64,000 bases of DNA from Escherichia coli (lineage in GTDB: Bacteria > Pseudomonadota > Gammaproteobacteria > Enterobacterales > Enterobacteriaceae): the NCBI RefSeq assembly GCF_045037415.1, contig NZ_CP173438.1; one strand, 5' to 3'. The position numbers and the translations under genes were made by a program. The notes beneath the pieces were generated by a model that made no database searches, was not told where the DNA came from, and saw only the letters and a list, made by a program, of their open reading frames with translations. The number at the start of each line of letters is the position of its first letter. Position 1 is the first letter of the stretch. Shown here piece after piece: positions 23,667 through 51,613 of the stretch.

Positions 23667-24509
23667 TCATGATGAAATTGCCGAAGTTTTTTTATCGTGC
23701 TGAAGTACCGCAAATGCCATTAAAACCTCAAGAGAATAGCGGCGATAATACTTAACAAAACCATAATAAAATACTCGGGATGCAGCAATACAAAACAAGA
23801 GAAGAAAACAAAAAGGTAACAGTCTGATATTTATATCTATTAAAAAGGATAGAAGGAGCAGGAACATAAGCAACCAGACTGAAGCGAGAAAAACAAATGT
23901 AATGTTTCTACAAAAACCATACAAAGCAACATAGTTTTGCATTTTCACCTGATGATTTTTAGAATGTTCATACACATAATGATAAGCAAGGCGAAAAAGA
24001 TCGCCCCTCAAGCCCTTACGTCGATATAGCGTAGATACAGAAAAAACATTTATATAACCATCTCGTATTTGCGGCCAAAAGACTTTAATAAGTATAGAAT
24101 GCAGTGTGGTTTTATGATGTTCTGCTTTATCAAAAGCTGATACAGGAAATAAAAAAACTCCACGAATAAAATTAACTATACTGAACTTAGTATTATGTCG
24201 TTTTATTTTCAGGGAGCTTCTTTTAGAAAACAGATAAATTGAAGGATACCCAAGTTTACTGTTCATGTATTTTTCAATTAAACAGGATGATAGAATAGAT
24301 ATGAAGTGACCTGAAATATATGATAGAACGATTAATACCACATATATAAATACACTTATTATTTCTTTATATTTCAGGATATGGTTAAGAATACCTTCTA
24401 TATAAACAGGGTTAATTTCAATAGAAAACAAAAAAAGGATAAACAGGAATAACCCACCTGGAATTAGATAGCCCAAAAAGTCATAAAATGAAAACGGATT
24501 CTGTGTCAC
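23667..24509 (-). CDS. Polytopic membrane protein (280 aa, at least 4 TM), unknown function; second gene of the AT-rich cargo operon
   Basis: GTG start with RBS aggggg; two N-terminal and two C-terminal hydrophobic helices around a basic ~130-aa loop; about 32 percent GC by eye. Confidence 0.6.
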   Translation of the reverse strand: MTQNPFSFYDFLGYLIPGGLFLFILFLFSIEINPVYIEGILNHILKYKEIISVFIYVVLIVLSYISGHFISILSSCLIEKYMNSKLGYPSIYLFSKRSSLKIKRHNTKFSIVNFIRGVFLFPVSAFDKAEHHKTTLHSILIKVFWPQIRDGYINVFSVSTLYRRKGLRGDLFRLAYHYVYEHSKNHQVKMQNYVALYGFCRNITFVFLASVWLLMFLLLLSFLIDINIRLLPFCFLLLFCIAASRVFYYGFVKYYRRYSLEVLMAFAVLQHDKKTSAISS

Positions 24510-24548
24510 ACTTCCCCCTGTGTTACTTGTAAATTAAAGGGTAAAACA

Positions 24549-25046
24549 TTATTTGTTTTTCCGTAAAGGATTAGCTTTCCATCTTCTTACTAACCATTCG
24601 AATTCTTGATATGTAGTATCCGAATTAATGCTTTCTCTGATTGCTTTAATTAATGGCTCGGCAATATCATATGTCTCTACAACTGTTGTGTAAGATGTTC
24701 TTTTTATCATTTTTTCATCATAAATACCTTCACGAATACTTACAGCAACTCGCTCGTAAAAATTTAAAATATATTGAAATTTTCGACGCTCGGCCATTTC
24801 TTCATCTGTTATTATGCAACCATCACAAGGAAAAACATAAGAACGAAATGATTTGCCTGAACGATGCACTTGTTTCAGGGTATGCAATGACTCTATATAT
24901 TGCATATCTTGCCGACTCTCAAAAAGAAAGTTGGCCGTTTGAGTTTTTTTTGCGGTACGCACATTGTAGATAATGGTTCCAATGGCAACCAAAACGCCAA
25001 GCAGAACAATAGCATTGCTGATGATTTGTAGTGTTATTGGGTTCAT
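24549..25046 (-). CDS. N-terminally membrane-anchored protein (165 aa), unknown function; first gene of the AT-rich cargo operon
   Basis: MNPITLQIISNAIVLLGVLVAIGTIIYNV (one TM) followed by a ~140-aa charged soluble domain; AT-rich. Confidence 0.6.
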   Translation of the reverse strand: MNPITLQIISNAIVLLGVLVAIGTIIYNVRTAKKTQTANFLFESRQDMQYIESLHTLKQVHRSGKSFRSYVFPCDGCIITDEEMAERRKFQYILNFYERVAVSIREGIYDEKMIKRTSYTTVVETYDIAEPLIKAIRESINSDTTYQEFEWLVRRWKANPLRKNK

Positions 25047-25769: not shown

Positions 25770-26294
25770 ATGGTCATTAATTACAAGCAGTTAAGAGAAA
25801 AACGGGAGCAGGTAAAGGAGAGCTTTCGCCGCAATGAAGATCTGACCCCGCTTGTACGCCTTGCCCAGGGCATTGTTGATGCTTATGAAATCTCGCTGGA
25901 GCTGCCATCACAGACCTGGACAGATAGCGACGGTAATCGCCAGCATTACGTTTCATGCGGACTGGAAGCAGCCGAAGGATTTCGCAGAATGCCTTTATCC
26001 CAGATCCCTGCCGCTACCCCCAAAGCACGGGGCAGCAATGATGAGCGAAAACTGACTTTTAGTATTGAAACGGTGGTTGACGACACACCTGGCGAAGTCG
26101 CGTTCGTGCACACTCCTGTTTCGATCGCAATGTATAACGATGAAATACAGGTTCGCGTTAATAATAATATCGTGCCACTTAAAGAAGGTAATTCACCCTA
26201 CACCACCGTTTGTGAAGCCATTCAATATTACGTTCTCTCTGAAATTGATAATCTCAAGCCTGACGGCACCCAGAAAATGGTTCAACTCTGGTAA
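25770..26294 (+). CDS. Hypothetical protein (174 aa), convergent on the portal gene
   Basis: ATG 25770 with RBS ggagg; MVINYKQLREKREQVKESFRRNEDLTPLVRLAQGIVDAYE...; no motif recognised. Confidence 0.45.
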   Translation: MVINYKQLREKREQVKESFRRNEDLTPLVRLAQGIVDAYEISLELPSQTWTDSDGNRQHYVSCGLEAAEGFRRMPLSQIPAATPKARGSNDERKLTFSIETVVDDTPGEVAFVHTPVSIAMYNDEIQVRVNNNIVPLKEGNSPYTTVCEAIQYYVLSEIDNLKPDGTQKMVQLW

Positions 26295-33922: not shown

Positions 33923-34064
33923 CCCACCCACATGGGGAAACCTCGGAATATGGGGCGACCGCCTTCTGGATGCACTGGAAACCTGTAACGCGGATAAACG
34001 GGCCATTGCTGAACTGGATAAGAGAATAGCCGAACTGACACACCAGACGGGAGTAACACAATGA
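33783..34064 (+). CDS. Rz1-like o-spanin lipoprotein (LysC-like), overlapping the Rz frame
   Basis: Lipobox LLTGC in MNAPTLCLTLVLLTGCAGT; Pro-rich mature part; begins inside Rz in another frame. Confidence 0.6.
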   Translation: MNAPTLCLTLVLLTGCAGTQNAPGPAPSVRLIPQTLTMPVTPPPFPDPPTWGNLGIWGDRLLDALETCNADKRAIAELDKRIAELTHQTGVTQ

Positions 34065-35938
34065 CCAGTAAGAACTTTGCACTGATTACAGCCATGACAC
34101 AGGCTGAACTGACTCAAAAGGTGAATGAACATCTTGCGAAAGGGTGGCATCTTCAGGGGGAGACGCGGGTTGCCTACGAACCCGGCACCCCGTGGTATCT
34201 AATGCAGGCAATGGTGGCCGATGGCACTACAGACATCTCACCTGATTCCCCCCAGCACGGCAGCGTGCCGGAGTGGTATTACGTGGTGGTACTTGCTGGT
34301 CAATCCAATGCCATGTCATATGGTGAGGGAATGCCGCTGCCGGATTCTTACGATGCGCCCCACCCACGCATTAAGCAACTGGCCCGTCGCAACACAGTGA
34401 CTCCCGGTGGTAAAGCATGCGCATTTAACGACATCATTCCGGCAGACCACTGCCTGCATGATGTTCAGGATATGAGCGCACTGAATCACCCGAATGCAGA
34501 CCTGAGCAAAGGGCAGTATGGCTGTGTCGGACAGGGCTTGCATATTGCCAAACGCCTGTTGCCTTACATTCCACAGAATGCCGGGATTTTACTGGTTCCA
34601 TGCTGTCGTGGTGGTTCGGCATTCACCCAGGGCGCGGAGGGGACATTCAGCGAGTCCACAGGAGCCAGTCAGGATTCGGCTCGCTGGGGTGTGGGTAAAC
34701 CTTTATATCAGGACCTGATTTTGCGCACGAAGGCCGCATTGCAGAAAAACCCAAAAAACATGCTGCTGGCCGTATGCTGGATGCAGGGCGAATTTGACAT
34801 GAGCGCCGCTACGTACTCACAGCAACCTCCGCTGTTTACGGCCATGCTGAAACAGTTTCGTGCGGACATTACCGAGTTTAACACGCAGTGTCATGGAGGC
34901 AGAGCGGCAAGTGTGCCATGGATTTGTGGTGACACGACGTATTACTGGAAAAACACCTACGGCACGCAGTACGACACCATTTACGGGGCGTACAAAAACA
35001 GGGAGAGCGACAACGTTTTCTTTGTGCCGTTCCTGACCGATGGTAGTGGCAACAATACCTCCACCAACGCACCAACGGAAGATCCGGATGCTGCAAGTGA
35101 GGGATATTACGGTTCGGCATCCCGAACGAACAAAAACTGGGTATCATCAAATCGCCAGACGCATTTCAGCTCATGGGCGCGTCGTGGCATTATTCCCGAT
35201 CGTATGGCAACCGCTATTCTGAACGTAGCCGGTCGCACCTTAGCCTTCATCAGTGGTAAGGCACCGGAAATCAAACCCTCGCCCGGCGGCGACACGCCAT
35301 CGGGGCCGTCTGAAGATGCATCCGTACGCACAATCTCCCTGTTGCCGACAGCCGGAGATGCTGCTGCGCAGGGCTGGAGCATTAAGAATGGCGGAATTCA
35401 GTTGTCAGAGGGTGTATTTAAGATCACCAAGCAGAGCAATAAAGCCTGGTCCCTGACGCGCCCGGTGGATGACGCAGTCTCCCTGCTGACACGGGGTGGC
35501 AGACTGAGCTGTAAGTTTCGACTGTCAGGCGCACTGACCAACAATCAGTTCGGTCTGGGAATTTATCTGTATACCGATGTAGCGTTACCTGACGTCGTGG
35601 CGATGACCGGGACTGGTAACCCGTTCCTGATGTCGTTCTTCACCCAGACCACAGACGGCAAACTGAATCTGATGCATCACAAGAAAGCAGGAAACACAAA
35701 GTTGGGCGAGTTCGGGAATTACAGTAACGACTGGCAGACGCTGGAGCTGGTGTTCACCGCCGGCAGTGCCACGGTTACTCCGAAACTGAATGGAGTGGCT
35801 GGCCCGGCATTCCAGGTCATAAAAGACAGTCTGACACTGGGGCTGAATGCGCTGACGTTAACTGATATCACTAAAAATGCCGCGTACGGCGTCGATATCG
35901 GCAGCCTGGTGCTGGAAATCAATAATCCCGCAGCATAA
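34061..35938 (+). CDS. NanS-p-like sialate O-acetylesterase (DUF1737 N-domain plus SGNH/SASA esterase domain)
   Basis: 625 aa; N-terminus MTSKNFALITAMTQAELTQKVNEHLAKGWHLQGE resembles the DUF1737 start of prophage NanS-p proteins; GQSNAMSYGEG is the esterase active-site block. Confidence 0.7.
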   Translation: MTSKNFALITAMTQAELTQKVNEHLAKGWHLQGETRVAYEPGTPWYLMQAMVADGTTDISPDSPQHGSVPEWYYVVVLAGQSNAMSYGEGMPLPDSYDAPHPRIKQLARRNTVTPGGKACAFNDIIPADHCLHDVQDMSALNHPNADLSKGQYGCVGQGLHIAKRLLPYIPQNAGILLVPCCRGGSAFTQGAEGTFSESTGASQDSARWGVGKPLYQDLILRTKAALQKNPKNMLLAVCWMQGEFDMSAATYSQQPPLFTAMLKQFRADITEFNTQCHGGRAASVPWICGDTTYYWKNTYGTQYDTIYGAYKNRESDNVFFVPFLTDGSGNNTSTNAPTEDPDAASEGYYGSASRTNKNWVSSNRQTHFSSWARRGIIPDRMATAILNVAGRTLAFISGKAPEIKPSPGGDTPSGPSEDASVRTISLLPTAGDAAAQGWSIKNGGIQLSEGVFKITKQSNKAWSLTRPVDDAVSLLTRGGRLSCKFRLSGALTNNQFGLGIYLYTDVALPDVVAMTGTGNPFLMSFFTQTTDGKLNLMHHKKAGNTKLGEFGNYSNDWQTLELVFTAGSATVTPKLNGVAGPAFQVIKDSLTLGLNALTLTDITKNAAYGVDIGSLVLEINNPAA

Positions 35939-38882: not shown

Positions 38883-39405
38883 TTCACTGTTACCGCCATC
38901 AGCCAGCAATTTCATGCGTTGCGCCGAAGCTGTCGGAGCGCGCATTACAGACATCCCGGTAGACCTCAACACGCTGTGGTCACCGGACACCTGCCCGGTG
39001 CATCTGCTGCCTTATCTCGCCTGGGCATTTTCCGTTGACCGCTGGGATCGCAACTGGCCGGAAGAGACAAAGCGACAGGTGATTCGTGATGCATGGCTGA
39101 TACACCGACACAAAGGGACCATCAGCGCACTGCGCCGGGCCATTGAGCCGCTGGGATACCTCATTCGCGTGTCTGAGTGGTGGGAGTTCGGCGGAGAACC
39201 GGGAACATTTACCGTTGAAGTCGGCACGCTGGACAGTGGCGTGACGGAGGAAATGTATCTGGAAATGGAGCGGTTGATTGCTGATGCCCGCCCGGTCAGC
39301 CGCCACATGACAGGGCTGAATATCATTCAGGAGATTCAGGGAGATATTTTCGCGGCGGCAGCAACTTACGACGGCGAAGTCATTACCATTTATCCGGACG
39401 ATTAA
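38875..39405 (+). CDS. Baseplate / tail protein I
   Basis: ATG 38875 overlapping the J stop; 176 aa as for P2 I. Confidence 0.8.
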   Translation: MSNSLLPPSASNFMRCAEAVGARITDIPVDLNTLWSPDTCPVHLLPYLAWAFSVDRWDRNWPEETKRQVIRDAWLIHRHKGTISALRRAIEPLGYLIRVSEWWEFGGEPGTFTVEVGTLDSGVTEEMYLEMERLIADARPVSRHMTGLNIIQEIQGDIFAAAATYDGEVITIYPDD

Positions 39406-39407
39406 GC

Positions 39408-41393
39408 ATGAGTACCACAACACGTAAATTTAAAACCGTTATCACCGATACGGGTGCCAAAAAATTAGCTCAGGCAGCCGCGCCAGATGGTAAGCCTGTC
39501 CGCCTGACTCATATGGCCGTGGGCGACGGTGGCGGCACGTTGCCCACACCAGACAGTAAGCAGACCCGTCTGGTGCATGAGGTGTGGCGACATACTGTTA
39601 ATCGCGTCATCCTGGACGCAACACATCAGAACCGCATTATTGCGGAGCTGGTTATTCCTCCTGAAACGGGCGGATTCTGGATCCGGGAAATTGGTGTATT
39701 TGATGAGCACGGCGATTTAATCGCGGTGGGCAATACTGCCGAAAGTTACAAGCCAGCCGTTGCCGAAGGGTCCGGTCGTGCACAAACATTTCGCACCATT
39801 CTGACCGTATCCAGCACTGCCACCGTGGTGCTTACCGTGGATAACACCATGGTGATGGCCACAGTGGATTACGTGGATGACAAACTGAAAGAGCATGAAC
39901 AGTCACGACGTCACCCGGACGCCTCGCTGACCGCAAAAGGCTTTGTTCAACTCAGTAGCGCCACTAACAGCGTGTCTGAAACGCAGGCTGCAACGCCGAA
40001 AGCAGTAAAGGCCGCGTATGACCTTGCTAACGGTAAATATACTGCGCAGGATGCCAGCACGACGCGAAAAGGCCTTGTCCAGCTCAGTAGCGCCACCAAC
40101 AGCACGTCTGAAACGCAGGCTGCAACGCCGAAAGCAGTAAAGGCCGCGTATGACCTTGCTAACGCAAAATATACCGCTCAGGACGCCACGACGGCACAAA
40201 AAGGGATAGTCCAGCTCAGTAGTGCCACCAACAGCACGTCTGAAACACTGGCCGCGACATCGAAAGCTGTTAAGGCGGTAATGGATGAAACGAACAAGAA
40301 AGCGCCCTTAAATAGTCCTGCACTGACCGGAACGCCAACAACACCAACTGCGCGACAGGGAACGAATAATACCCAAATCGCAAGCACGGCTTTCGTTATG
40401 GCTGCGATTGCCGCCCTTGTAGATTCGTCACCTGATGCACTGAACACGCTGAACGAGCTGGCTGCGGCGCTGGGCAACGACCCGAATTTTGCGACCACCA
40501 TGACTAACGCGCTTGCGGGTAAGCAACCGAAAGATGCCACCCTGACGGCGCTGGCCGGACTTACTACTGCGGCAGGCAAGTTTCCGTATTTTACGGGGAA
40601 TGATGTCGCCAGCCTGGCAACCCTGACAAAAGTCGGGCGGGATATTCTTGCGAAATCGACCGTTGCTGCCGTTATCGAATACCTCGGTTTACGAGAACTC
40701 GGCACAAGCGGGGAGAAAATACCGTTACTCAGTACAGCGAATACCTGGACCAATCGACAAACATTCAGCGGTGGCCTTTCTGGGGAACTGTCCGGCAATG
40801 CCGCTACTGCAACAAAGCTGAAAACAGCACGAAAAATTGCTGGAGTTGGTTTTGATGGTTCTAGCGATATTTCAATTAGTGCCAAAAATGTCAATGCATT
40901 TGCACTCCGACAAACAGGTAATACTGTTAATGGTGATACATCCGTTGGATGGAATTGGGATAGTGGTGCATATAACGCCATGATTGGTGGTGCATCTGCA
41001 TTAATTCTTCACTTTAATATAAATGCTGGTAGCTGTCCTGCCGTACAATTCCGTGTGAATTATAAAAATGGTGGCATTTCCTACAGGTCGGCTCGTGATG
41101 GTTATGGGTTTGAATTAGGTTGGTCAGATTTCTATACCACGACACGAAAACCTTCAGCGGGAGATGTTGGTGCATATACGCGGACAGAATGTAACTCAAG
41201 GTTTATTACAGGTATTCGCCTTGGCGGTCTGTCATCTGTTCAGACATGGAATGGTCCCGGCTGGTCTGACAGGTCAGGTTATGTCGTTACGGGTTCAGTT
41301 AACGGAAACCGTGATGAATTAATTGATACAACACAGGCAAGGCCAATTCAGTATTGCATTAATGGGACGTGGTATAACGCGGGGAGTATTTAA
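39408..41393 (+). CDS. Tail fibre protein (P2 gpH-like); C-terminal third lies inside the invertible segment
   Basis: 661 aa; internal 44-aa tandem repeats; the gix-like crossover site at 40672..40697 lies inside the gene. Confidence 0.85.
   Translation: MSTTTRKFKTVITDTGAKKLAQAAAPDGKPVRLTHMAVGDGGGTLPTPDSKQTRLVHEVWRHTVNRVILDATHQNRIIAELVIPPETGGFWIREIGVFDEHGDLIAVGNTAESYKPAVAEGSGRAQTFRTILTVSSTATVVLTVDNTMVMATVDYVDDKLKEHEQSRRHPDASLTAKGFVQLSSATNSVSETQAATPKAVKAAYDLANGKYTAQDASTTRKGLVQLSSATNSTSETQAATPKAVKAAYDLANAKYTAQDATTAQKGIVQLSSATNSTSETLAATSKAVKAVMDETNKKAPLNSPALTGTPTTPTARQGTNNTQIASTAFVMAAIAALVDSSPDALNTLNELAAALGNDPNFATTMTNALAGKQPKDATLTALAGLTTAAGKFPYFTGNDVASLATLTKVGRDILAKSTVAAVIEYLGLRELGTSGEKIPLLSTANTWTNRQTFSGGLSGELSGNAATATKLKTARKIAGVGFDGSSDISISAKNVNAFALRQTGNTVNGDTSVGWNWDSGAYNAMIGGASALILHFNINAGSCPAVQFRVNYKNGGISYRSARDGYGFELGWSDFYTTTRKPSAGDVGAYTRTECNSRFITGIRLGGLSSVQTWNGPGWSDRSGYVVTGSVNGNRDELIDTTQARPIQYCINGTWYNAGSI
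39937..40290 (+). repeat. Three tandem 132-bp (44-codon) repeats within the tail-fibre gene
   Basis: Units begin at about 39937, 40069 and 40201, each encoding KG-VQLSSATNS-SETQAATPKAVKAAYDLAN-KYTAQDA; the third is diverged. Confidence 0.75.
40672..40697. promoter_or_regulatory. gix/cix-like invertase crossover site (left)
   Basis: ttatcgaatacctcggtttacgagaa, compared with recalled Mu gixL TTATCCAAAACCTCGGTTTACAGGAA; in inverted orientation to the site at 43420..43445. Confidence 0.7.
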
Positions 41394-41395
41394 CG

Positions 41396-41929
41396 ATGAT
41401 GCACTTAAAAAACATTACTGCTGGCAACCCTAAAACAAAAGAGCAATACCAGCTAACAAAGCAATTTAACATCAAATGGCTTTATTCAGCTGATGGAAAA
41501 AACTGGTATGAGGAACAAAAGAATTTCCAGCCAGACACTTTGAAAATGGTCTATGACCATAACGGCGTTATTATTTGTATTGAAAAGGATGTTTCAGCAA
41601 TTAATCCGGAAGGCGCAAGCGTCGTTGAATTACCTGATATTACAGCAAATCGCCGGGCTGATATTTCGGGGAAATGGATGTTCAAAGATGGCGTAGTGGT
41701 AAAGCGAACTTATACCGAGGAAGAGCAGAGGCAACAAGCGGAAAATGAAAAGCAGAGCCTGTTGCAACTTGTCAGGGATAAAACTCAGCTATGGGACTCA
41801 CAGCTACGGCTGGGCATCATTTCCGACGAGAATAAACAAAAATTAACCGAGTGGATGCTCTATGCGCAGAAAGTCGAATCCACAGACACCTCCAGCCTGC
41901 CAGTAACATTTCCCGAACAACCTGAATGA
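41396..41929 (+). CDS. Tail fibre assembly chaperone (P2 gpG-like), variant 1
   Basis: 177 aa, [40 protein letters not shown]... Confidence 0.8.
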   Translation: MMHLKNITAGNPKTKEQYQLTKQFNIKWLYSADGKNWYEEQKNFQPDTLKMVYDHNGVIICIEKDVSAINPEGASVVELPDITANRRADISGKWMFKDGVVVKRTYTEEEQRQQAENEKQSLLQLVRDKTQLWDSQLRLGIISDENKQKLTEWMLYAQKVESTDTSSLPVTFPEQPE

Positions 41930-41957
41930 GACAAGGCCCGATAACGGGCCTTAATTT

Positions 41958-42485
41958 TTATTCAGGCTTTTGTGGCCATTCAGGATTTGCCGTATCCACA
42001 CGGTTGACCAGAACACTGTAGCGTTCCCATGCTTCCAGTCGTGTGCGTTCCTCGTCTGTTGCCATATTCAGCCTGACAGCGCGTTCCAGCGGCTGGATGA
42101 CTGATTCAGCTTCGGAAAGCAATGCGGCCTTTTGTGATTCGGCCTGTTGTTGCTGTTCGTCAGCCGTATAAATCCGTTTAACCACAGCTCCGTCCTTAAA
42201 CATCCACTTACCGGAATCATCGGTCCGACGATTGGCCGTTATATCGGGAACCTCGACGACGCTAAAACCTTCGGGATTAAGCGTGGAGGCATCTCTGGTG
42301 ATGGCGACAATAATATTATTTTCATCGTAAACAATCTTTATGGTGTCTGGCTGAAAGTTTTTCACTTCCTCATACCAGTTTTTTCCGTCCTCAGAGTAAA
42401 GCCAGATAACTCCGTGTTTCTTTGTTAACTCATACTGTTCCAGTGTTTTAGCATTACCCGCTTTTATGTTCTTTAAGTGCATCAT
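41958..42485 (-). CDS. Tail fibre assembly chaperone, variant 2 (alternative cassette)
   Basis: 175 aa, [40 protein letters not shown]...; a paralogue of the + strand G gene inside the invertible segment. Confidence 0.8.
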
Positions 42486-42486
42486 A

Positions 42487-43419
42487 TTAAACGCTCGCTA
42501 CATTATACCAGGTGCCATTTATATACTTTTGAACGGGTCTGTAATAAACACCCGCTATATTATCGGCAGAGTTAGACCCTGTATCCTGAACATTAATACC
42601 AGACAATACATGACCTGAAGGGCACTGGAAATTCCATGTTCGCCAGTTGTTCACTCCATAATATTGCTGTGAACCAAGTCGAACATCTTTCACATAACGG
42701 GAATCAAAGTTACCGTAATCCGAGGGATTAACACGCCCCGTAATATTTATGGTCTTATTACTTTGAATGCTTCCGGGAACAAAGCGCATAACATGGACGT
42801 AATTAGCATAAACATCCAGATTACCATCGCCATTTTGTTTAAAGCCCGTGTCATTATCACCCAATACAATCGAATTACCGCCAAGAGCACTGGATGTTCC
42901 GATACCCAGTGCACCATTCAGTTGACCACCAGATAACGGCAGTGCACCAACATCTCCTGCTGAAGGTTTTCTGGTGGTGGTGTAAAATTCGGACCAGTCG
43001 GCTTCAAAACCATAACCATCACGGGCTGAACGATAAAAAATACCGCCATTTTTATAATTAATCCGAAACTGAGCTGCAGGACAACTTCCGTCTCCCATAT
43101 AAAAATGAATAATTAACGTTGATGCACCACCAATATTTGCGTTATAGGCTCCGCTACTCCAGTTCCATCCAACTGCTTTATCATTCGCAACGGTGCTTCC
43201 TGTTTTCCCTAAGGCAAACGCACCAACATGACTTGCTTTTAATGTGATATCGGAGGAACCATCAAAAGCCACATTGCTTATTTTCCTGGCAGTTTTTAAT
43301 TTTGCAGCTGTAGAAGCATTGCCGGATAGTTCACCAGAAAGGCCACCGCTGAATGTTTGTCGATTAGTCCAGGTATTCGCTGTACTGAGTAACGGTATTT
43401 TCTCCCCGCTTGTGCCGAG
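42487..43419 (-). other. Promoterless alternative tail-fibre C-terminal cassette
   Basis: ORF 42487..43272 is the in-frame part; the reverse complement of 43300..43420 nearly repeats H codons at about 40700..40800; expressed only after inversion. Confidence 0.65.
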
Positions 43420-43445
43420 TTCTCGTAAACCGAGGTTTTAAATAA
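43420..43445. promoter_or_regulatory. gix/cix-like invertase crossover site (right)
   Basis: ttctcgtaaaccgaggttttaaataa, compared with recalled Mu gixR TTCCTGTAAACCGAGGTTTTGGATAA. Confidence 0.7.
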
Positions 43446-43499
43446 TGGCCGTTTCTGGCCTGCATGGCATGATTTGCGCTTTTGGACGGGAGATTCAGT

Positions 43500-44099
43500 G
43501 TGCTGATTGGCTATGTAAGGGTATCAACAAATGACCAGAATACAGACCTGCAACGAAACGCTCTTGTTTGTGCAGGATGTGAACAAATATTTGAAGATAA
43601 ATTAAGCGGGACAAAGACAGACCGACCGGGATTAAAACGCGCTTTAAAGCGCCTTCAAAAAGGTGACACGCTGGTTGTCTGGAAACTGGATCGCCTCGGG
43701 CGAAGCATGAAACATCTGATTTCTCTCGTCGGGGAACTACGGGAGCGAGGGATTAATTTTCGCAGTCTGACCGACAGCATAGACACATCTTCTCCAATGG
43801 GGCGTTTTTTCTTCCACGTGATGGGTGCCCTGGCTGAAATGGAACGTGAATTAATTGTTGAACGTACACTGGCCGGGCTGGCGGCAGCGCGCGCAAGGGG
43901 GCGCACAGGCGGACGTCGACCGAAGCTGACAAAAGAACAGCATGAGCAAATAGCAAGGCTAATCAAAAACGGGCACGACAGAAAACAACTGGCAATAATT
44001 TACGGCATTGGCACATCGACGATTTATCGTTATCACCCTGTAGGCGATATACAGACTGAAGAAACAACCGGGCAGACTCAGGAAAATGAAAACCGCTAA
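43500..44099 (+). CDS. Serine DNA invertase (Gin/Pin/Cin/Hin family)
   Basis: GTG start gives MLIGYVRVSTNDQNTDLQRNALVCAGCEQIFEDKLSG..., close to recalled Gin/Pin; catalytic Ser in VRVSTNDQ. Confidence 0.85.
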   Translation: MLIGYVRVSTNDQNTDLQRNALVCAGCEQIFEDKLSGTKTDRPGLKRALKRLQKGDTLVVWKLDRLGRSMKHLISLVGELRERGINFRSLTDSIDTSSPMGRFFFHVMGALAEMERELIVERTLAGLAAARARGRTGGRRPKLTKEQHEQIARLIKNGHDRKQLAIIYGIGTSTIYRYHPVGDIQTEETTGQTQENENR

Positions 44100-44120
44100 T
44101 CTGACCATTAGCGGTTTTTG
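44090..44120. terminator. Bidirectional terminator between the invertase and gpU
   Basis: ccgctaat-ctgacc-attagcgg hairpin with an A run on one side and a T run on the other. Confidence 0.5.
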
Positions 44121-44127
44121 TGTTAAA

Positions 44128-44622
44128 TCAGAACAGCCCTTTAACTGAACTGGCCGCGCTGTTAAGAGATGATGTCACCTTATCTTTGAAGCCGGACAGC
44201 ATATCACTGAACGATGAGGATTGCAGGCGCTCCCGCAAATCCTCATCACAGCGTTCAAGAGTCAGTGAAAATTCTATCTTTTTCGCCTTACCGTAGCGAT
44301 CAAACTCGGAGCGGGTCGTATTCGTTTCAGTCAGGACATACATGCCGTAAATCTGCCCGACGCCATCAATCAAAGGCCAGGGTCGTCCTGTATACGCCTG
44401 CGTGGTCAGCAGCGACAGCGACACTTCGCCACCTGTAATTTCAGGATAAAGCACACCAGAAAGAACGATGCGATCATCACCTGCACCGATATACTGCCAG
44501 CTTGCTGAACGGTTAACGCGTTCATTTTTCACATGCCGCCAGCTTTTGTTTTGCTGTAACTGCTGATGCGGCAGCGTGCGCAGCTCAAAAACAAACATGC
44601 CGTAGATCATCATCATGGCCAT
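44128..44622 (-). CDS. Tail protein U (P2 gpU-like)
   Basis: 164 aa; ...QQLQQNKSWRHVKNERVNRSASWQYIGAGDD... parallels recalled P2 gpU. Confidence 0.8.
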   Translation of the reverse strand: MAMMMIYGMFVFELRTLPHQQLQQNKSWRHVKNERVNRSASWQYIGAGDDRIVLSGVLYPEITGGEVSLSLLTTQAYTGRPWPLIDGVGQIYGMYVLTETNTTRSEFDRYGKAKKIEFSLTLERCDEDLRERLQSSSFSDMLSGFKDKVTSSLNSAASSVKGLF

Positions 44623-44628
44623 GACTCC

Positions 44629-47472
44629 TCAATCTTTATCGTAAAAACTGCCACGCCCGGCACGGGCGCGCCGTTCCATTTCTGCCCTGACCATTTCACC
44701 GACCAGTTTCGCCAGTTCGCGGGGATTCTGCGTAACAACGTTATGCAGATGAACATGAATTTCACCACCAAATCCGGAGGCAACAGGCTCCCGGTTACGG
44801 GAAGTTACAGGAACTGATGCCACTGGAGATCGTATAGCCTCCGCCACCGGGCGGGAGCTGGCCGCAACAACAGGGACCAGCGCCGGAGGCAGCGGAGCCG
44901 GGACCACGGGTGTGATATTAATTGCGGGGGCAGGCTTACTGACCTGCGCAATCTTCCGCTCCTGCCACTCCCCACGAACAGCAAGTGCTCGGGGCAGGTT
45001 TTTAAAGACAATATCGCCGGGGCCAATGCGTTTTTTCGTCTCCTCAACCAGCTTACCTGTGTTATCAGCAATTTTGCTGAGTCTGCGCAGCGTACCGGTA
45101 TTGCTGTCTGTGAGCGGTTTATTGTCTTTGGGGTTATCACCTCCGGTGCCATTGCCATTTTCCACAGGCTTCGGCGGATTGATTTTCGCCAGGTCCCCCT
45201 GAAGCAAGGCAACCTTGTCCTGAAGAATGGCCGCACGCTGTGCGTCTTCGATTTTCTTGCGCGCCCTTTCCGCTTCATCCGGAAGCACACCAAGCTTTTC
45301 AAGTATCCACGCCAGCGTATCCAGCAACATTTTTGCAGGTGTCAGAACAAGTTGTAACGCACCGCCAAGAACGTTACCGAATATCTCGCCAGCACTGGTA
45401 CATTTATCCAGAGTTTCCTTGCTGGACTCCATCGGAGACAGCAGCGATTTAAACCAGTTAAACACCTGGCTGATCCCACTCCCGATTGCGTCAAAAACAG
45501 GACCAAACCGTTCAAAGGTTTCGCGCAACGGGGTCAGCCTTTCCATAATCCCGCTGAACACCCCGGCAAAAAATGCCCTGATGGGATCCCAGTATTTCCA
45601 GATGAGAACGGCAGCTCCGGCAAGCGCAGCCACGATAAGGCCGACCGGACTGAACAACGCCCCGATAGCGCCCCCCAGTAACGAAACGGAACCCGTCACC
45701 ATTCCCCATAGTGCTGGCAGGAGTCTGACAGCATTCATTGAACCGGTCAGGAGGGAAAAGCCAAGACGCAGTTTTGCCAGCGGGCCAGCAAGCACACCAA
45801 TAGCCAGCGACAACGAGCCAACCGTTGCAGTCATTGCCAGCAACGCACCGCCTGCTATCAGTAGCTGGCGCGTCAGTACCGGATGGGCCTGCGCCAGCGA
45901 GGTGATTTTTTCAAGCACCCGCGTGAGCCACTGCGTGACAGAACGCAGCGGACCGTCAACCAGATCACTGATGCGAATACGAAGACCTTCCCATGCGCTG
46001 TCGAGATTTTTCAGGTCCCCATCAAGATTATCGGCCATTACTTTTGCAACGCGATCGGCCTCTCCCCTTGCCCCCTGCAATTCTCTGGTCAGTTTTTGCA
46101 GCTCTCCTGAACCAGCCGCCGCAACAAGCGTCTGCAAACCAACGAACGCCTCTTCTCCGGCGATGTCCTTGAAGAAGGAAACCTGGTCCACCTGTCCGTA
46201 TTTTTGTGTCGCCTTATAGAGATCAAGCAGCACATCCTCCATCGGGCGCATTTTGCCTCTGGCGTCAGCAACTGACACCCCCAGCTCTTTCAGCGCATCA
46301 GCCGCAGCTTTTGGCGGTGATGCAAGGCGGGACAGACTTGCGCGCATGGCCGTACCAGCATCGCTTCCACGAAGACCATTATTGGCAAGCATCCCGGCCA
46401 TGGCTGCCGCTTCTTCAAGACTGATACCAAGTTTTGCGGCAACCGGACCGGTATACTTCATGGTTTCGCCCAGCGCGCGTAAATCAGTATTGGTCCGGGT
46501 GAATGCCGCTGTCAGCGTATCGCCAACCCGGTCCATTTGATCGGCTGTCAGGTTGAACTGTGTGAGGATATTGGAGCCTATATCAGCCGTCTCGCCGAGT
46601 TCGACGCCACCTGCCAGCGCCATATTAAGAACACCGGGCAATGCGGCCTGAATGGCCTGCGGAGTAAAACCAGCCATTGCCAGAAAGCTCTGCCCACTGG
46701 CGGCATCACTCGCAGTAAACTGTGTTTCAGAGCCAAGTTTTAACGCCTGCTCACGCAGCGCCTTAAACTGCGGGCTGTTTTTGTCGATTCGCGTCAGCGC
46801 CTGAACGCGGGACATCTCTTTGCCGAACCCGATCGCGGGCTGCAAAAAACGCCCGGCAGCATAGCCGCCCGCCGCTGCCGCACCAATTGCCAGCGCACCA
46901 CCTGTTTTCAGTTTTCCCGCGGTTTCCTGCGCGCGCGAATACCGCTCACGAGCCTGCGTTACACGCGCAAGCGCCTGCCGTTCGCGTTCAAGCTGGTTGT
47001 TGTATTGTTCGGTGCGTCTGATGGCCTGCTGGATGGTGTTATCGCTGCCTGTCAGGGAAATGCCGTGGCGTTTCAGTTCTCCGCCAAGCTCCCGCATTTT
47101 CTGAATTTCCCGTGTGCGCGATTCATTCAGGCGTTCAAGCCGGGTGCTTAACTGCTGCATCAGCTTTTGTTGTTTTTCGCTGAGCACTGTACCCGTGCGT
47201 TGTAACTGATTAAGGGCGTTAAGCTGGCGTCGTGCTTTCACGATACCCGCATCCGCTTTACTGACAGCGTCGCGGGCGCGCTCAAATGAACGCGCCTGAC
47301 GCTCGAGATTTTTGATCGCCCCCTGCGTTCGCTGAATGGAGTCACCAAACTGCCCCATCAGGCGGCGGGCGTTTTCGGCAGGCCGGGTCAGCCTGTCAAC
47401 GGCGCTGAAAGCGACCCGGATGTCAAGAGTCTTCATTATCTGCATTCCCGCTGCGAAGTGCCGCCCGCTCAC
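44629..47472 (-). CDS. Tail tape measure protein (P2 gpT-like)
   Basis: 947 aa, Ala/Gly-rich with coiled-coil N-terminal region and hydrophobic centre; downstream of E/E'. Confidence 0.85.
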   Translation of the reverse strand: MSGRHFAAGMQIMKTLDIRVAFSAVDRLTRPAENARRLMGQFGDSIQRTQGAIKNLERQARSFERARDAVSKADAGIVKARRQLNALNQLQRTGTVLSEKQQKLMQQLSTRLERLNESRTREIQKMRELGGELKRHGISLTGSDNTIQQAIRRTEQYNNQLERERQALARVTQARERYSRAQETAGKLKTGGALAIGAAAAGGYAAGRFLQPAIGFGKEMSRVQALTRIDKNSPQFKALREQALKLGSETQFTASDAASGQSFLAMAGFTPQAIQAALPGVLNMALAGGVELGETADIGSNILTQFNLTADQMDRVGDTLTAAFTRTNTDLRALGETMKYTGPVAAKLGISLEEAAAMAGMLANNGLRGSDAGTAMRASLSRLASPPKAAADALKELGVSVADARGKMRPMEDVLLDLYKATQKYGQVDQVSFFKDIAGEEAFVGLQTLVAAAGSGELQKLTRELQGARGEADRVAKVMADNLDGDLKNLDSAWEGLRIRISDLVDGPLRSVTQWLTRVLEKITSLAQAHPVLTRQLLIAGGALLAMTATVGSLSLAIGVLAGPLAKLRLGFSLLTGSMNAVRLLPALWGMVTGSVSLLGGAIGALFSPVGLIVAALAGAAVLIWKYWDPIRAFFAGVFSGIMERLTPLRETFERFGPVFDAIGSGISQVFNWFKSLLSPMESSKETLDKCTSAGEIFGNVLGGALQLVLTPAKMLLDTLAWILEKLGVLPDEAERARKKIEDAQRAAILQDKVALLQGDLAKINPPKPVENGNGTGGDNPKDNKPLTDSNTGTLRRLSKIADNTGKLVEETKKRIGPGDIVFKNLPRALAVRGEWQERKIAQVSKPAPAINITPVVPAPLPPALVPVVAASSRPVAEAIRSPVASVPVTSRNREPVASGFGGEIHVHLHNVVTQNPRELAKLVGEMVRAEMERRARAGRGSFYDKD

Positions 47473-47586
47473 GCCAGCTAACCACTTCGCCGGGCGTCAT
47501 CATGAAGATTTCGGCGGGCGACCAGTTGAAAATGGCGGCAATATCCGCCACCAGATCTTCGATGTGCTCAAAGCACACCAGGGTGA

Positions 47587-47961
47587 TTACGCTGCCGTCT
47601 CCTGCACGCTCTTCGCGCCAGAGTCTGGCTCGCTCATAAAATTTACAGCCACAGCGCACAACTGAATAAAATCGCGTGACGACATTTTTTTAATCATCAC
47701 TTCATCCAGTCGTGGCGAGGTCACGCGAGGCAACAGCGTGAACATGGTATCCGCTTTCAGATTCAGCACATCAGACAGCGACAGACCACGCAGGGATCCC
47801 GCCTGCTCAATAGCCCCGGTGATCTCCACATATGTGATTTTTTCGGCACCACGCTCAATTGGCCGGGAAAGTTTTACACCACGTTCGACAGCCATATCCT
47901 CACCTGACGTCACATCATCCGCTACGGTGTTATTCCGGGTTTCAGTATCGATATCTTTCAT
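47587..47961 (-). CDS. Tail assembly chaperone E (P2 gpE-like) with overlapping -1 frame E' extension (47423..47659)
   Basis: 124-aa ORF whose 3' end overlaps a -1 frame ORF running into T; A7 run at about 47685..47691 near the start of the shared window. Confidence 0.7.
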   Translation of the reverse strand: MKDIDTETRNNTVADDVTSGEDMAVERGVKLSRPIERGAEKITYVEITGAIEQAGSLRGLSLSDVLNLKADTMFTLLPRVTSPRLDEVMIKKMSSRDFIQLCAVAVNFMSEPDSGAKSVQETAA

Positions 47962-48016
47962 CAGTTGTCTCCTTTTCAGTCAGAGGCGACGCACTGCGCC
48001 GCCTGCATATTACTTA

Positions 48017-48529
48017 TCAGCCAAGCCCAAGCGCGGAACGAATGCGGTCAGGCACAATGTCCTTGCCGTCCTTCCGGTAGATGTGGTTCAACAGGTCGAT
48101 TTCCCACAGCGGGCGATCGTTAACGCTCAGCTTGTAGTAGGTGTTTTTGACAGCGTAAGTGTGTGATGTGGCTTCGCCCTGTTTGGCCTCCCCCATATCA
48201 ATTTCCGTCACACGCCCGCGCATCTCGATTTCATACAGATCGCTTTCTGCATCGGTGTAATATTCACCCGCAAAACGCAGCAGCGTGCCGTCAATCGTGC
48301 CGCCATACTTAAGGAACAGTGCACGAACAGCTCCCCCCATGACAAAGCTCGCATCAAGCGCGGAGTCGTCCAGACCGAGATCAATACTTACTGCTCCCAT
48401 CATGCCACCACCACGATAGCTGTCGGTTTTGCGCGTCAGTTTGGGCGGCGTGACGGATGTCACTTTACCCACTTCGTTTTCACCATCCACAAACAACGTA
48501 AAAAAGCGAAGATGTTTTGGTACAGCCAT
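48017..48529 (-). CDS. Tail tube protein (P2 gpFII-like)
   Basis: 170 aa (P2 FII is 172); position between sheath and E. Confidence 0.85.
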   Translation of the reverse strand: MAVPKHLRFFTLFVDGENEVGKVTSVTPPKLTRKTDSYRGGGMMGAVSIDLGLDDSALDASFVMGGAVRALFLKYGGTIDGTLLRFAGEYYTDAESDLYEIEMRGRVTEIDMGEAKQGEATSHTYAVKNTYYKLSVNDRPLWEIDLLNHIYRKDGKDIVPDRIRSALGLG

Positions 48530-49713
48530 CAGGCACCTCCCAGCACCGCAAATGCGGGACCAAAGAATTCATCAGTAAACGTCTGGTAAAGCTCCATGTC
48601 TTCCAGCGGGGGAACGGGCGTATATTTGTAGCGAATACGCACACGCCCCTGACGTAAATCCGTGGTGCCGTTATCCACCACGTCATACCAGCACTCCGCG
48701 CCAATCAGTTTCCCGGCAGTAACCAGCGAATCCAATTTTGCCCTGATGGCACTGATAACATCCTTCACGTTCGCAGGCGTCAGTGGACTGTCGATGGTTT
48801 CAAACTGCGCTTCCGCAATTGAATCAGCCAGCACCTGTGCGGTTCGGGTATACACCTCAAAGATGTAGGCGTTCGTTTCCGGTGTGCGGTTGCCCCAGAA
48901 GCGGAACCCGTTACGACGAATAATGGTCGTGATTTCTTTGTTGTTGAGGCTGTTGGCATCACTGTCTTCGGCCTGTAACGACCAGAACACATGCCTCGAC
49001 ATCCCCAGCACATTTTTAACCGGAACGTTGGACAGCGATTTGTGCCAGCCCTGCTCATGGTCAATGTACGCACGAAGGCCGCACGCATAAGCAGGCGCGG
49101 GGAACGTTTCGTTTTTGCCACTTTTCGGGTTGTAGGCGATGAAGTCAGGCCATAAGAGCATCACCTCACGTTCGTTGAATTTCTGGCGGTAGGTAATCGC
49201 CTCAGCCATCGTGTTACAACCATGACATGTGGCATACACAAACGCGCGCAGTTTACCCGCAATCACGCACAGGGATTTTGTCACCGCCTCCGTGTCCAGC
49301 TCCGGCGCGGCCAGAATACGCGGACGGTATCCGATGCTTTCATCCTGCTCTGCAACAAGCAGCGCATACATCCCCGTATAGCTGCCGTCAGATTCAGAAC
49401 CACCGATAACCAGTTGATCCTGCGTCCTACCGCCTTCTTCTTTGTGTTCAGCCACGCGAACGACGATCACTTTTGTGCTCACCTGGTCTGCGATAGCCTT
49501 AAGCGCACGATAAAGCGTCCCCGTAGTCCCGCATTTTCCCAGCACGTCATTGACGCGGGTCAGCAGTGTGGGCTTGTTCAGCGGGAACAGCTCCGCATCC
49601 GCATCATCCGCCGTTGCCACGATACCGATAACGCTGGAATCAACATCATTAATCGCTGTTACCAGGTCGGTACTTTCCGTGACACGGGCACCATGAAAAC
49701 GAGTTTCACTCAT
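48529..49713 (-). CDS. Tail sheath protein (P2 gpFI-like)
   Basis: 394 aa (P2 FI is 396); ATGA-coupled to FII. Confidence 0.85.
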   Translation of the reverse strand: MSETRFHGARVTESTDLVTAINDVDSSVIGIVATADDADAELFPLNKPTLLTRVNDVLGKCGTTGTLYRALKAIADQVSTKVIVVRVAEHKEEGGRTQDQLVIGGSESDGSYTGMYALLVAEQDESIGYRPRILAAPELDTEAVTKSLCVIAGKLRAFVYATCHGCNTMAEAITYRQKFNEREVMLLWPDFIAYNPKSGKNETFPAPAYACGLRAYIDHEQGWHKSLSNVPVKNVLGMSRHVFWSLQAEDSDANSLNNKEITTIIRRNGFRFWGNRTPETNAYIFEVYTRTAQVLADSIAEAQFETIDSPLTPANVKDVISAIRAKLDSLVTAGKLIGAECWYDVVDNGTTDLRQGRVRIRYKYTPVPPLEDMELYQTFTDEFFGPAFAVLGGA

Positions 49714-49870: not shown

Positions 49871-50980
49871 ATGACCGACACCACCATGCAATTGCTCAGT
49901 CAGGGCACAGACCCCGTGAAAATGCCGGATTTTGATATTCTCGCGGAGGGTAAAACGCTGTCAGGCGTGGCAGAGCGCCTGATGAGCCTGTCACTGACCG
50001 ACAACCGGGGATTTGAGGCGGACCAGCTCACCATCACGCTGGATGATGCGGATGGTCAGTTGCAGCTACCGCCACGGGGCGCGCGCCTGACGGTTCTCAT
50101 TGGCTGGAAAGGAGAACCGCTGACAGAAAAAGGCACTTACATTGTTGATGAAATCGCTCACGAAGGACCGCCGGACAGGCTGACTGTTTCAGCCAGAAGC
50201 GCAGATTTTCGGGATGAATTTAACGTTAAACGTGAGGTGTCCTGGCATGATGTGACCGTTGAGCGTGTGGTATCCGCCATCGCTCATCGGTATGGTCTGA
50301 AACCGCAAATCAGCGAAATGCTGATGGATATCGAAATCGACCACGCCGACCAGACCGAAGAAAGCGACATGTCCTTCCTTACGCGCATGGCGGAAATGCT
50401 GGGCGCAATCACCACGGTAAAAAGCGGTAATCTGTTATTCATCATGCCCGGCGGTGGCGTGAACGCACAGGGCCAGCCGTTGCCATCGTTTGCCATCACA
50501 CGCAGCAGCGGCGATCGCCATCAGTTCCGCATTGCTGACCGCGAAGCGTATACGGGGGTACGCGCTTACTGGCTTGATCTTAATTACGGGAAAAAGAAAA
50601 AAGTCAGCGTGAAACGCCGTAAACCGCCAAAACCCAAAAAGGAGAAAAGCAGCAGCCGCGAAGGTGATTATATGGAAGGCGCGGAAGGCAATGTGTTTGT
50701 GTTACGCAAGACTTATCAGAACGAGCAGGCAGCAAGACGCGCAGCGGCGGCAAAGTGGCAGCAACTACAACGCGGAGCCGCATCATTCTCCATCACGCTG
50801 GCGCGTGGACGTGCAGAACTCTACCCCGAAATGCATGGCACGGTAACAGGATTTAAAAGCGAGATTGATAATCAGGACTGGATCATTGCAAAAGCCGAGC
50901 ACACCATTGATAACAGCGGTTTTACCACGCAGCTTGAGCTTGAGGCAAAAATCCCGGAATGGATAGCGGAAACAGAGTGA
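49871..50980 (+). CDS. Tail protein D (P2 gpD-like, late control gene D)
   Basis: ORF 49739..50980 trimmed to ATG 49871 with RBS gggaggg; about 370 aa; assigned by size and position next to ogr. Confidence 0.7.
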   Translation: MTDTTMQLLSQGTDPVKMPDFDILAEGKTLSGVAERLMSLSLTDNRGFEADQLTITLDDADGQLQLPPRGARLTVLIGWKGEPLTEKGTYIVDEIAHEGPPDRLTVSARSADFRDEFNVKREVSWHDVTVERVVSAIAHRYGLKPQISEMLMDIEIDHADQTEESDMSFLTRMAEMLGAITTVKSGNLLFIMPGGGVNAQGQPLPSFAITRSSGDRHQFRIADREAYTGVRAYWLDLNYGKKKKVSVKRRKPPKPKKEKSSSREGDYMEGAEGNVFVLRKTYQNEQAARRAAAAKWQQLQRGAASFSITLARGRAELYPEMHGTVTGFKSEIDNQDWIIAKAEHTIDNSGFTTQLELEAKIPEWIAETE

Positions 50981-51020
50981 GCAACTTAGAATAGGCAGCA
51001 CCACGTTAAGGGAGGTCGCT

Positions 51021-51281
51021 ATGTTCCGTTGTCCGCTTTGTGGCGCATCTGCCCGTATCCGCACCAGTCGTCCGGAAAATGATTCAAACACCGTGCGGCA
51101 AAAGTATTACCAGTGTAACAATCTGGAATGCGGCGTATGCTTCTCAACACTGGAAGCTTTCCATAAATTCACATCAAAACACGCCTCCGGCGTTCACTCT
51201 TCAGAAGGTATCCCGTGGCATGATCTGCCAGCTTCACACAGGGGAAACAATCAGATGAGTTTGCCTTTATCTCAGAATTAA
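51021..51281 (+). CDS. ogr: Ogr/Delta-type zinc-finger late transcription activator
   Basis: MFRCPLCGASARIRTSR...YYQCNNLECGVCF has the CxxC...CxxxxC pattern and parallels recalled P2 Ogr. Confidence 0.8.
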   Translation: MFRCPLCGASARIRTSRPENDSNTVRQKYYQCNNLECGVCFSTLEAFHKFTSKHASGVHSSEGIPWHDLPASHRGNNQMSLPLSQN

Positions 51282-51472: not shown

Positions 51473-51613
51473 ATGTCGCAAAAATCGCTTACGGCCATCA
51501 CATTCTGCGTGACGGCAATCCTCATCATCTGGATGCTGCACGGTTCGCTGTGTGAAATACGGATGAGTTTCTGGGGAGCGGAGTTTGCGGCGTTCTTACA
51601 GTGTAAGCAGTAA
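51473..51613 (+). CDS. Hok/Gef-family type I toxin (46 aa), with overlapping mok-like frame 51370..51555
   Basis: MSQKSLTAITFCVTAILIIWMLHGSLCEIRMSFWGAEFAAFLQCKQ: N-terminal TM then the SLCEIR signature and an E-AAF block as in Hok; RBS aggag. Confidence 0.6.
   Translation: MSQKSLTAITFCVTAILIIWMLHGSLCEIRMSFWGAEFAAFLQCKQ

Follow-up and report, generated by a model that had tools for sequence, protein, structure and literature searches.

The locus considered here has already been described: it is the invertible tail-fibre segment of prophage Phi1 in E. coli EC958, for which Forde et al. (2014, PLoS One 9:e104400; PMC4134206) reported two crossover sites, a 2773-bp segment, and PacBio reads from one culture that were divided between the orientations at approximately 50% each. 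Their account does not cover the enhancer, the mosaic invertase, or the Mu and P1 cassettes that the fibre tips resemble. Comparable segments are the G segment of phage Mu, which is served by the invertase Gin and gix sites, and the C segment of phages P1 and P7, which is served by Cin and cix sites. Based on the analysis presented below, we assign a probability of roughly 0.93 to the reading that this locus is a site-specific inversion switch of the Din family (Gin/Cin/Pin/Hin), residing in the P2-like prophage Phi1 of ST131.

The 64-kb stretch of DNA that was analysed (the window) is identified from its sequence as prophage Phi1 of E. coli ST131, a P2-like phage belonging to Xuanwuvirus (P88-like Peduoviridae). 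P2-type late genes, the gene order of P88, and high identity were found by reference to the annotation of EC958 and P88. Escherichia phages 503458 and 520873 stand at the head of the phage matches, among which is also the Xuanwuvirus P884B11.

Two 26-bp sites of the gix type, inverted relative to each other, lie where the original prediction had placed them. The left site (40672-40697, + strand; TTATCGAATACCTCGGTTTACGAGAA) falls within gene H and has its TC core at 40684-40685, whereas the core of the right site (43420-43445, - strand; reverse complement TTATTTAAAACCTCGGTTTACGAGAA) reads GA at 43432-43433; thus, the central dinucleotides are identical and the sites are inversely oriented. Both have the same letters as sites in Table 3 of Forde et al. 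(PMC4134206), Phi1_5prime for the left and Phi1_3prime for the right. In the Mu record, TTATCCAAAACCTCGGTTTACAGGAA is present at both annotated boundaries of the G segment, and comparison with it shows 4 mismatches in the 26 positions of each window site. The two sites differ from one another at 3 positions, all of which are within the outer half-site. When up to 3 mismatches were allowed, a search of the 64 kb for the full site returned exactly two matches, namely the left and right sites on opposite strands, compared with an expectation of 0.00 for shuffled sequence; alignment with the Mu sequence likewise identifies them as gix-type. No extra crossover sites of the kind expected in a multi-segment shufflon were found by this search of the window, and such a shufflon was rejected, given that the full site is present only twice. 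With one mismatch allowed, the core pattern AAACCNNGGTTT gave four further matches, none of them in the prophage late region, and a total near that expected by chance.

The invertible segment measures ~2.77 kb from outer end to outer end of the sites, and spans 40685-43432 from core to core. The sites themselves lie at the outer ends of an extended inverted repeat of 170 nt (89% identity), with its left arm at 40668-40837 (+ strand) and its right arm at 43280-43449 (- strand). Inward of each site, the repeat continues for ~112 nt with one mismatch, and is near-perfect from 40672 to 40783 in the left arm. The neighbouring tail module FI-U (44128-49713), which is inverted relative to P2, has neither a flanking inverted repeat nor a gix-like site. 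It was considered as a second invertible segment or as a product of the invertase, but this was rejected, since this order is also that of P88, an inducible phage. On this comparison of gene order, the inverted FI-U module is a fixed feature of the genus.

The segment inverts in nature and within one strain. Amongst complete E. coli genomes, 122 carry it in the orientation of the window and 114 in the flipped orientation; what was found is not a single orientation accompanied by an inactivated invertase, the combination named beforehand as evidence against a switch, but two orientations alongside an invertase that is intact (see below). Many ST131 genomes show one or the other orientation at 100% identity, as do two assemblies of a single strain, EC958. 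One of these assemblies, CP138232.1, carries the segment at the same locus adjoining serS and agrees over 23,701 nt with the window flipped in silico (0 mismatches), and the flip is the only difference between the two EC958 assemblies. Orientation also differs among similarly named isolates, for example between 1162T7 and 1162C, and between S2, S4 and S5 on the one hand and S3, S6 and S9 on the other. Short-read assembly sometimes places a segment between inverted repeats in the wrong orientation, and the second orientation might be ascribed to a mis-assembled inverted repeat of this kind. Such an artefact can be dismissed, since each orientation is represented at full length by more than 100 complete genomes, the flipped assembly was compared base by base over 23.7 kb, and PacBio reads spanning the segment have been reported (PMC4134206).

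The length of the inverted repeat raises the question of whether RecA-dependent homologous recombination within its 112-170 nt could generate both orientations, in which case the gix-like sequences and the invertase would be relics. The near-perfect stretch of ~112 nt would suit such a process, and comparison of the assemblies confines the crossover only to 40681-40750, a stretch of 70 bp that is identical in both arms. Against this, the repeat starts exactly at the gix-type sites, and the invertase is intact, its catalytic half being almost identical to Gin. Furthermore, a 100-nt repeat normally recombines at a far lower rate than an approximately 1:1 split of orientations implies. The even division of reads in a single culture (PMC4134206), together with the near 1:1 ratio among genomes, indicates a rate far above what is usual for a repeat of this size, and we regard recombination through RecA as extremely unlikely.

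The contents of the segment were all present as predicted. The constant N-terminal part of tail-fibre gene H (39408-40683, + strand; ~425 aa) lies outside the segment, and comprises a tail-collar N-terminal domain and three Phage_fiber_2 repeats. Inside it lie two in-frame C-termini, alternatives to one another, and a separate chaperone for each. In the orientation of the window, H ends in a tip of the Mu S' type (40686-41393, + strand), which is the variable end currently expressed; it is followed by the tail-fibre assembly chaperone G (41396-41929, + strand), which has a Caudo_TAP domain and is likewise currently expressed. The opposite strand carries the silent chaperone G' (41958-42485) and a silent, promoterless alternative C-terminus of H (42487-43431), with a reading frame that is open from 43431 to a stop at 42487-42489. 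Between the convergent genes G and G' there is a GC-rich hairpin (41933-41952, + strand), which is followed by a run of T on the + strand only. The prediction of two alternative tail fibres is borne out by an in-silico flip at the core, which yields an in-frame fibre H' of 740 aa followed directly by its own chaperone G'; a 740-aa fibre is annotated by RefSeq in the flipped assembly. The last ~150 residues of the two tips cannot be aligned, with the exception of the final motif. A promoter scan found no promoter belonging to the cassettes themselves; the cassettes are part of the late operon. NCBIfam gave no useful match to the chaperones and fibre parts, nor did PADLOC to the chaperones.

A serine DNA invertase of 199 aa with a Gin-type catalytic domain is encoded at 43500-44099 (+ strand). 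It starts 54 bp outside the right site, compared with a predicted distance of about 55 bp, at a GTG codon that is common to the RefSeq annotation and Mu gin. The protein has a Resolvase domain (PF00239, 2.1e-50, residues 3-135) and an HTH_7 domain (PF02796, 1.4e-12, residues 138-180), matches a chain of the Gin crystal structure with E = 3e-100, and is 81% identical to Mu Gin, 73% to Cin, and 94% to the invertase of P88. Ser9, Arg8 and the DRLGR motif are intact, and do not vary among this protein, Gin, Cin and the P88 invertase. His106 and Met114 are also present; position 114 is Val in both crystallised Gin chains (4m6f, 3uj3). Residues 1-119 show one difference from Gin, while the DNA-binding domain has diverged from it and scores 52.6 bits against the domain of Hin and 42.8 bits against that of Gin. 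Judged by its residues and domains, the invertase is intact. PADLOC and NCBIfam matched it with serine-recombinase models only, all below threshold. According to the promoter scan, the invertase has no sigma-70-like promoter between its start codon and the right site. A hairpin with a 12-bp stem (44089-44118) lies between the converging genes for the invertase and tail protein U.

The original prediction had envisaged an enhancer inside the invertase gene, and a putative recombinational (Fis) enhancer can be placed within its 5' end at 43518-43585, by homology to the one that is annotated in the record for P7 cin. This stretch is identical to Mu gin at 68 of 68 positions, as are the first 110 nt of the gene (110/110), and begins 73 bp from the right site, which is consistent with a figure of ~100 bp given for hin. 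Placement of the enhancer in Mu relies on the P7 annotation, together with a position reportedly described by Kahmann et al. in 1985. The Fis sites of Hin are spaced 48 bp apart. The best G...C 15-mers of the window (43522-43536 and 43571-43585) are 49 bp apart; assignment of Fis sites by consensus was dropped on account of this spacing, and placement of the enhancer relies on the identity to Mu. Homology thus suggests that an enhancer is present in cis in the 5' part of the invertase gene. In Hin, the residues that contact Fis and the enhancer have been described (PMC3798978). The equivalents of the former (Gln150, Arg153, Leu154) are kept in the invertase of the window, as are those of the latter in basic helix B (Lys46, Arg47, Lys50), in each case offset by one relative to Hin numbering. 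Inversion is predicted to depend on Fis.

Catalysis can probably be attributed to the adjacent invertase. Din invertases are able to complement each other, and the segment might instead be flipped mainly in trans by another member of the family encoded in the same genome, with the adjacent gene playing a minor role. Further Din invertases are indeed present in EC958, and Forde et al. inferred action in trans for the segment of Phi4, whose own invertase is truncated (PMC4134206). By contrast, the gene next to the segment of Phi1 is full length, retains all catalytic and Fis-contact residues, occupies the canonical position beside the site, and contains the putative enhancer, making a predominant contribution in trans very unlikely.

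As a Din-type switch, the locus would operate as follows. Dimers of the invertase would bind both 26-bp gix-type sites and, with host Fis bound to the enhancer in the 5' end of the invertase gene, would assemble an invertasome on supercoiled DNA. Both sites would be cut at the central TC dinucleotide, and rotation by 180 degrees followed by religation would flip ~2.75 kb. Because the left site is inside H, the constant N-terminal part of 425 aa, driven by the late operon of the phage, is joined to either of the two variable ends: in the orientation of the window to a C-terminus of 236 aa of the Mu S' type, accompanied by a U'-type chaperone, and after inversion to a different C-terminus of 315 aa, accompanied by a U-type chaperone. 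Expression would be limited to the cassette that adjoins the constant part, so that progeny phage would have one of two receptor-binding tips, and the two tips are predicted to confer different host ranges. With every proposed element present and inversion documented, the interpretation of the locus as an invertible tail-fibre switch is supported.

The lysogen might profit from the switch as well as the phage, but this appears unlikely. The adjacent invertase may act as a master invertase whose targets extend to segments in other prophages of ST131, for example Phi4; this hypothesis was raised for Phi4 by Forde et al. (PMC4134206). Alternatively, the products of one orientation may alter the adsorption of other phages, by analogy with PinQ and PinR of the K-12 cryptic prophages, for which such an effect has been reported. 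The window offers no support for altered adsorption, since the cassettes are promoterless and in the late operon. As a switch serving the phage, the locus would be a textbook example of bet-hedging over host range, and has little importance beyond annotation. In ST131 genomes it explains spurious contigs, apparent sequence differences between assemblies of one strain, and tail-fibre pseudogenes that annotation pipelines label "partial". The split of approximately 1:1 in more than 230 complete genomes means that the assembled orientation is an outcome of sampling, and not a character of the strain.

Amongst known systems, Phi1 of EC958 shows no difference of substance. The window and NZ_HG941718.1 can be matched base by base, with 40672-40697 corresponding to c961070..961095 and 43420-43445 to 958322..958347. 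Escherichia phage P88 (Xuanwuvirus) agrees in gene order, and this extends to the invertase, the fibre cassettes and a tail module that is on the opposite strand. Its invertase is 94% identical, and its fibre is 99% identical over the constant part (residues 1-430). However, in P88 as deposited, the expressed cassette is of the other type and the S'-like one is silent, and its second tip is 43% identical to that of H' over 83 aa.

The C segment of P1 and P7 has the same architecture, and the enhancer is annotated within cin, at its 5' end. Identity to P7 amounts to 92% for G' (compared with U') and 88% for the current tip (compared with the end of S). By contrast, the C segment of P7 is 4.0 kb in length, Cin is only 73% identical, and the inverted repeats of P1 and P7 are much longer than those of the window (~0.6 kb in the P1 C segment). 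With respect to Mu, the phage of the window is of the P2-like and not the Mu-like type, its fibre has a constant part that is unrelated except for the repeats, the inverted repeats are 170 nt in length compared with 34 bp in the Mu G segment, and in the last 83 aa of the second tip identity to Mu S is just 51%. Nevertheless, the two share 26-bp sites with a TC core, the left of which is within the fibre gene, and the same layout, in which a fibre end and chaperone are followed by an inverted chaperone and fibre end, with the invertase just outside. The likeness extends to the cassettes, where identity is 97% between G and U', 90% between G' and U, and 88% between S' and the last 165 aa of the current tip, as well as to the putative enhancer.

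Two gix-type crossover sites lie in opposite orientation at 40672-40697 (TTATCGAATACCTCGGTTTACGAGAA) and 43420-43445 (TTATTTAAAACCTCGGTTTACGAGAA, given as reverse complement). Their positions bear out the original prediction, which had also noted that each departs from Mu gix in only a few places. TC is the central dinucleotide of both, inverted between them. The gix reference used here was read from the Mu record; TTATCCAAAACCTCGGTTTACAGGAA is present at both annotated G-segment boundaries, and each window site has 4 mismatches to it over 26 positions. The two window sites share identical inner half-sites. When the site pattern was searched with up to 3 mismatches, only these two were found in 64 kb, versus 0.00 in shuffles. 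A longer inverted repeat (170 nt, 89%) has the sites as its outer ends and is near-perfect for ~112 nt inward of each, with one mismatch at 40751/43366.

The left site falls within the tail-fibre gene H (39408-41393, 661 aa), near codons 422-430. H has a constant part, 99% identical to the P88 fibre, that comprises a tail-collar N-terminal domain and three Phage_fiber_2 repeats; the latter are encoded by three tandem 132-bp repeats (39917-40312) that are 75-88% identical. All components that had been proposed to lie between the sites were found: the current C-terminus of H and its downstream Caudo_TAP chaperone gene G (41396-41929), and on the minus strand the second chaperone gene G' (41958-42485) and an alternative H end, an open frame that extends from the right site to the stop codon at 42487-42489. 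Upon in-silico inversion of 40684-43433, H remains in frame and now encodes 740 aa, and G' begins two bases past the new stop. A GC-rich hairpin (41933-41952) follows G, between the two chaperone genes, and has a T-run on the plus strand only. In the flipped state, late transcription running past G' would encounter this hairpin without a T-run and, we infer, could continue in the direction of the right site and the invertase gene.

Over its last 165 residues the expressed tip shares 88% identity with both Mu S' and the end of P7 S, and G shares 97% with Mu U'; by sequence, the tip now expressed is assigned to the Mu G(-) type. The silent cassette has a U-type chaperone (90% identity with Mu U and 92% with P7 U'), and its tip shares only 51% identity with Mu S over the last 83 residues. 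At the DNA level the silent cassette is closest to Shigella phage SfMu (91%). Given these differences between the cassettes, the two tips likely differ in receptor specificity.

Both orientations occur in sequenced genomes. With the in-silico flipped sequence as query (3701 nt, including ~480 nt of flank on each side), the flipped form was found at a coverage of at least 80% in 114 of 5,426 complete E. coli genomes, and the 40 matches listed are all single-piece with 100% coverage and identity. The window orientation was found in 122 genomes. The orientation differs among similarly named isolates (1162T7 vs 1162C; S2/S4/S5 vs S3/S6/S9), and strain EC958 appears in both sets, with NZ_HG941718.1 in the window orientation and NZ_CP138232.1 flipped. 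In the flipped EC958 assembly the segment is at the same locus adjoining serS, and RefSeq annotates the 740-aa fibre. The locus is not confined to one orientation, and its invertase is intact. That the second orientation is an assembly artefact is excluded by the 114 genomes, by the 0 mismatches in 23,701 bases between the flipped EC958 assembly and the in-silico flipped window, and by PacBio reads, ~50% of which support each orientation (PMC4134206).

Compared with the unflipped window, the flipped EC958 assembly differs from 40751 to 43366, while the outer half-site differences at 40676, 40677 and 40680 are unmoved. This places the exchange between 40681 and 40750, with the core (40684-85) inside that interval. 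RecA-dependent recombination within the inverted repeat could also produce both orientations, and the crossover interval does offer 70 nt of identity; however, the invertase is intact, the repeat starts exactly at the crossover sites and the switching rate is high, which makes this route unlikely. Flipping in trans by another Din invertase is possible but unnecessary. The observation of a Gin-like invertase beside an invertible tail-fibre cassette is confirmed, and its interpretation as a tail-fibre switch, predicted to alter host range, is supported.

The same locus was described by Forde et al. 2014 as prophage Phi1 of EC958, with crossover sites TTATCGAATACCTCGGTTTACGAGAA at c961070..961095 and TTATTTAAAACCTCGGTTTACGAGAA at 958322..958347 (PMC4134206). 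Using the relation EC958 position = 962367 - (window position - 39400), these map exactly onto 40672-40697 and 43420-43445. Since the switch has been published for this very prophage, its novelty is nil. It was also suggested that Phi4, which has a truncated invertase, may be acted on in trans by the Phi1 invertase (PMC4134206), and invertible fibre segments have also been shown in P2-like prophages of other E. coli strains (PMC4272514).

Many chromosomes of E. coli ST131, EC958 and JJ1887 among them, carry the region 39400-44700 at 100% identity. The JJ1887 match is in two pieces (6,078 bp of the record vs 5,301 bp of the query); an IS1A-family element lies somewhere inside this copy (NZ_CP014316.1). 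In the annotated EC958 record, the prophage adjoining serS is P2-like and complete, with replication genes, portal, terminase, capsid and lysis genes, and baseplate V, W, J and I. These are followed by the tail fibre, a pair of tail-fibre assembly genes, a partial fibre and a "recombinase family protein"; U, tape measure, E, tube and sheath come next and lie on the opposite strand, and D, ogr and hok are last. Over 44.6 kb the window differs from NZ_HG941718.1 at only 5 positions, 23097 and the four adjacent bases 45357-45360 in the tape-measure gene; at the latter, the newer EC958 assembly CP138232.1 matches the window. The nearest phage records are Escherichia phages 503458 and 520873; other matches include Xuanwuvirus P884B11 and Escherichia phage P88 (Xuanwuvirus P88), the latter with the same gene order.

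In phage P2 the tail module runs the same way as V-W-J-I-H-G and D. In the window, the module (44128-49713, minus strand; sheath FI, tube FII, E, E', tape measure T, U) is opposite in direction, so that a short spacer separates the divergent sheath and D genes (D and ogr lie on the plus strand at about 49871-51281). Neither a gix-like site nor an inverted repeat was found flanking 44128-49713, and P88 has the same inverted layout; a second switch was therefore rejected, and the direction is regarded as a fixed feature of the genus. Between the lysis and tail-completion genes, a 625-aa ORF annotated as a DUF6645 domain protein (34061-35938, plus strand) gave no match in PADLOC or NCBIfam. P2 is not known to have a gene at this position, and the ORF may be a moron of unknown function. 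An accessory cluster between the replication/ParM-like genes and the portal gene (23667-25046, minus strand; 25770-26294, plus strand) encodes a 280-aa ORF with a weak Csx27-like PADLOC match (1.1e-5), a 165-aa DUF4760 protein and a 174-aa hypothetical protein; its position suits a hotspot, variable or defence-related, of P2-like phages. At the right end of the prophage, directly before serS, is a toxin gene of the hok/gef family (about 51473-51613, plus strand).

The invertase gene (43500-44099) has a GTG start, as does Mu gin, and encodes Resolvase and HTH_7 domains. The protein shares 81% identity with Gin, 73% with Cin and 94% with the P88 invertase; all of them have Ser9, Arg8 and the DRLGR motif unchanged, and residues 1-119 differ from Gin once. 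Gin is also the top solved-structure match (E = 3e-100). His106 is present in the window protein, as is Met114, where both crystallised Gin chains (4m6f, 3uj3) have Val. At the DNA level, identity to Mu gin is 110/110 over the first 110 nt and 197/200 over the first 200 nt, with 43-50 matches per 50-nt window (86-100%) to about nt 350 and 22-30 beyond. The gene is a mosaic of a Mu gin-like 5' part and a diverged 3' third encoding the DNA-binding domain, for which the Hin domain gives a higher score (52.6 bits) than the Gin domain (42.8 bits).

The Mu enhancer is reportedly located inside the 5' part of gin (Kahmann et al. 1985, which PMC3798978 cites for enhancer action), and an enhancer within the invertase gene was among the features the original prediction had named to look for. 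A putative one is found at 43518-43585, where the putative enhancer annotated at nucleotides 19-86 of P7 cin aligns and where 68/68 positions are identical to Mu gin. It starts 73 bp from the right site, a distance that agrees with the ~100 bp separating hix from the proximal Fis site in the Hin system (PMC3798978). No confident pair of Fis sites was made out within it. Hin contacts Fis and the enhancer through helix 1 of the DNA-binding domain and basic helix B (PMC3798978). Allowing for a one-residue offset from Hin numbering, these contact positions are conserved in helix 1 (Gln150, Arg153, Leu154) and in helix B (Lys46, Arg47, Lys50). On every feature that can be judged from the DNA, the switch is a full member of the Gin/Cin/Pin/Hin class.
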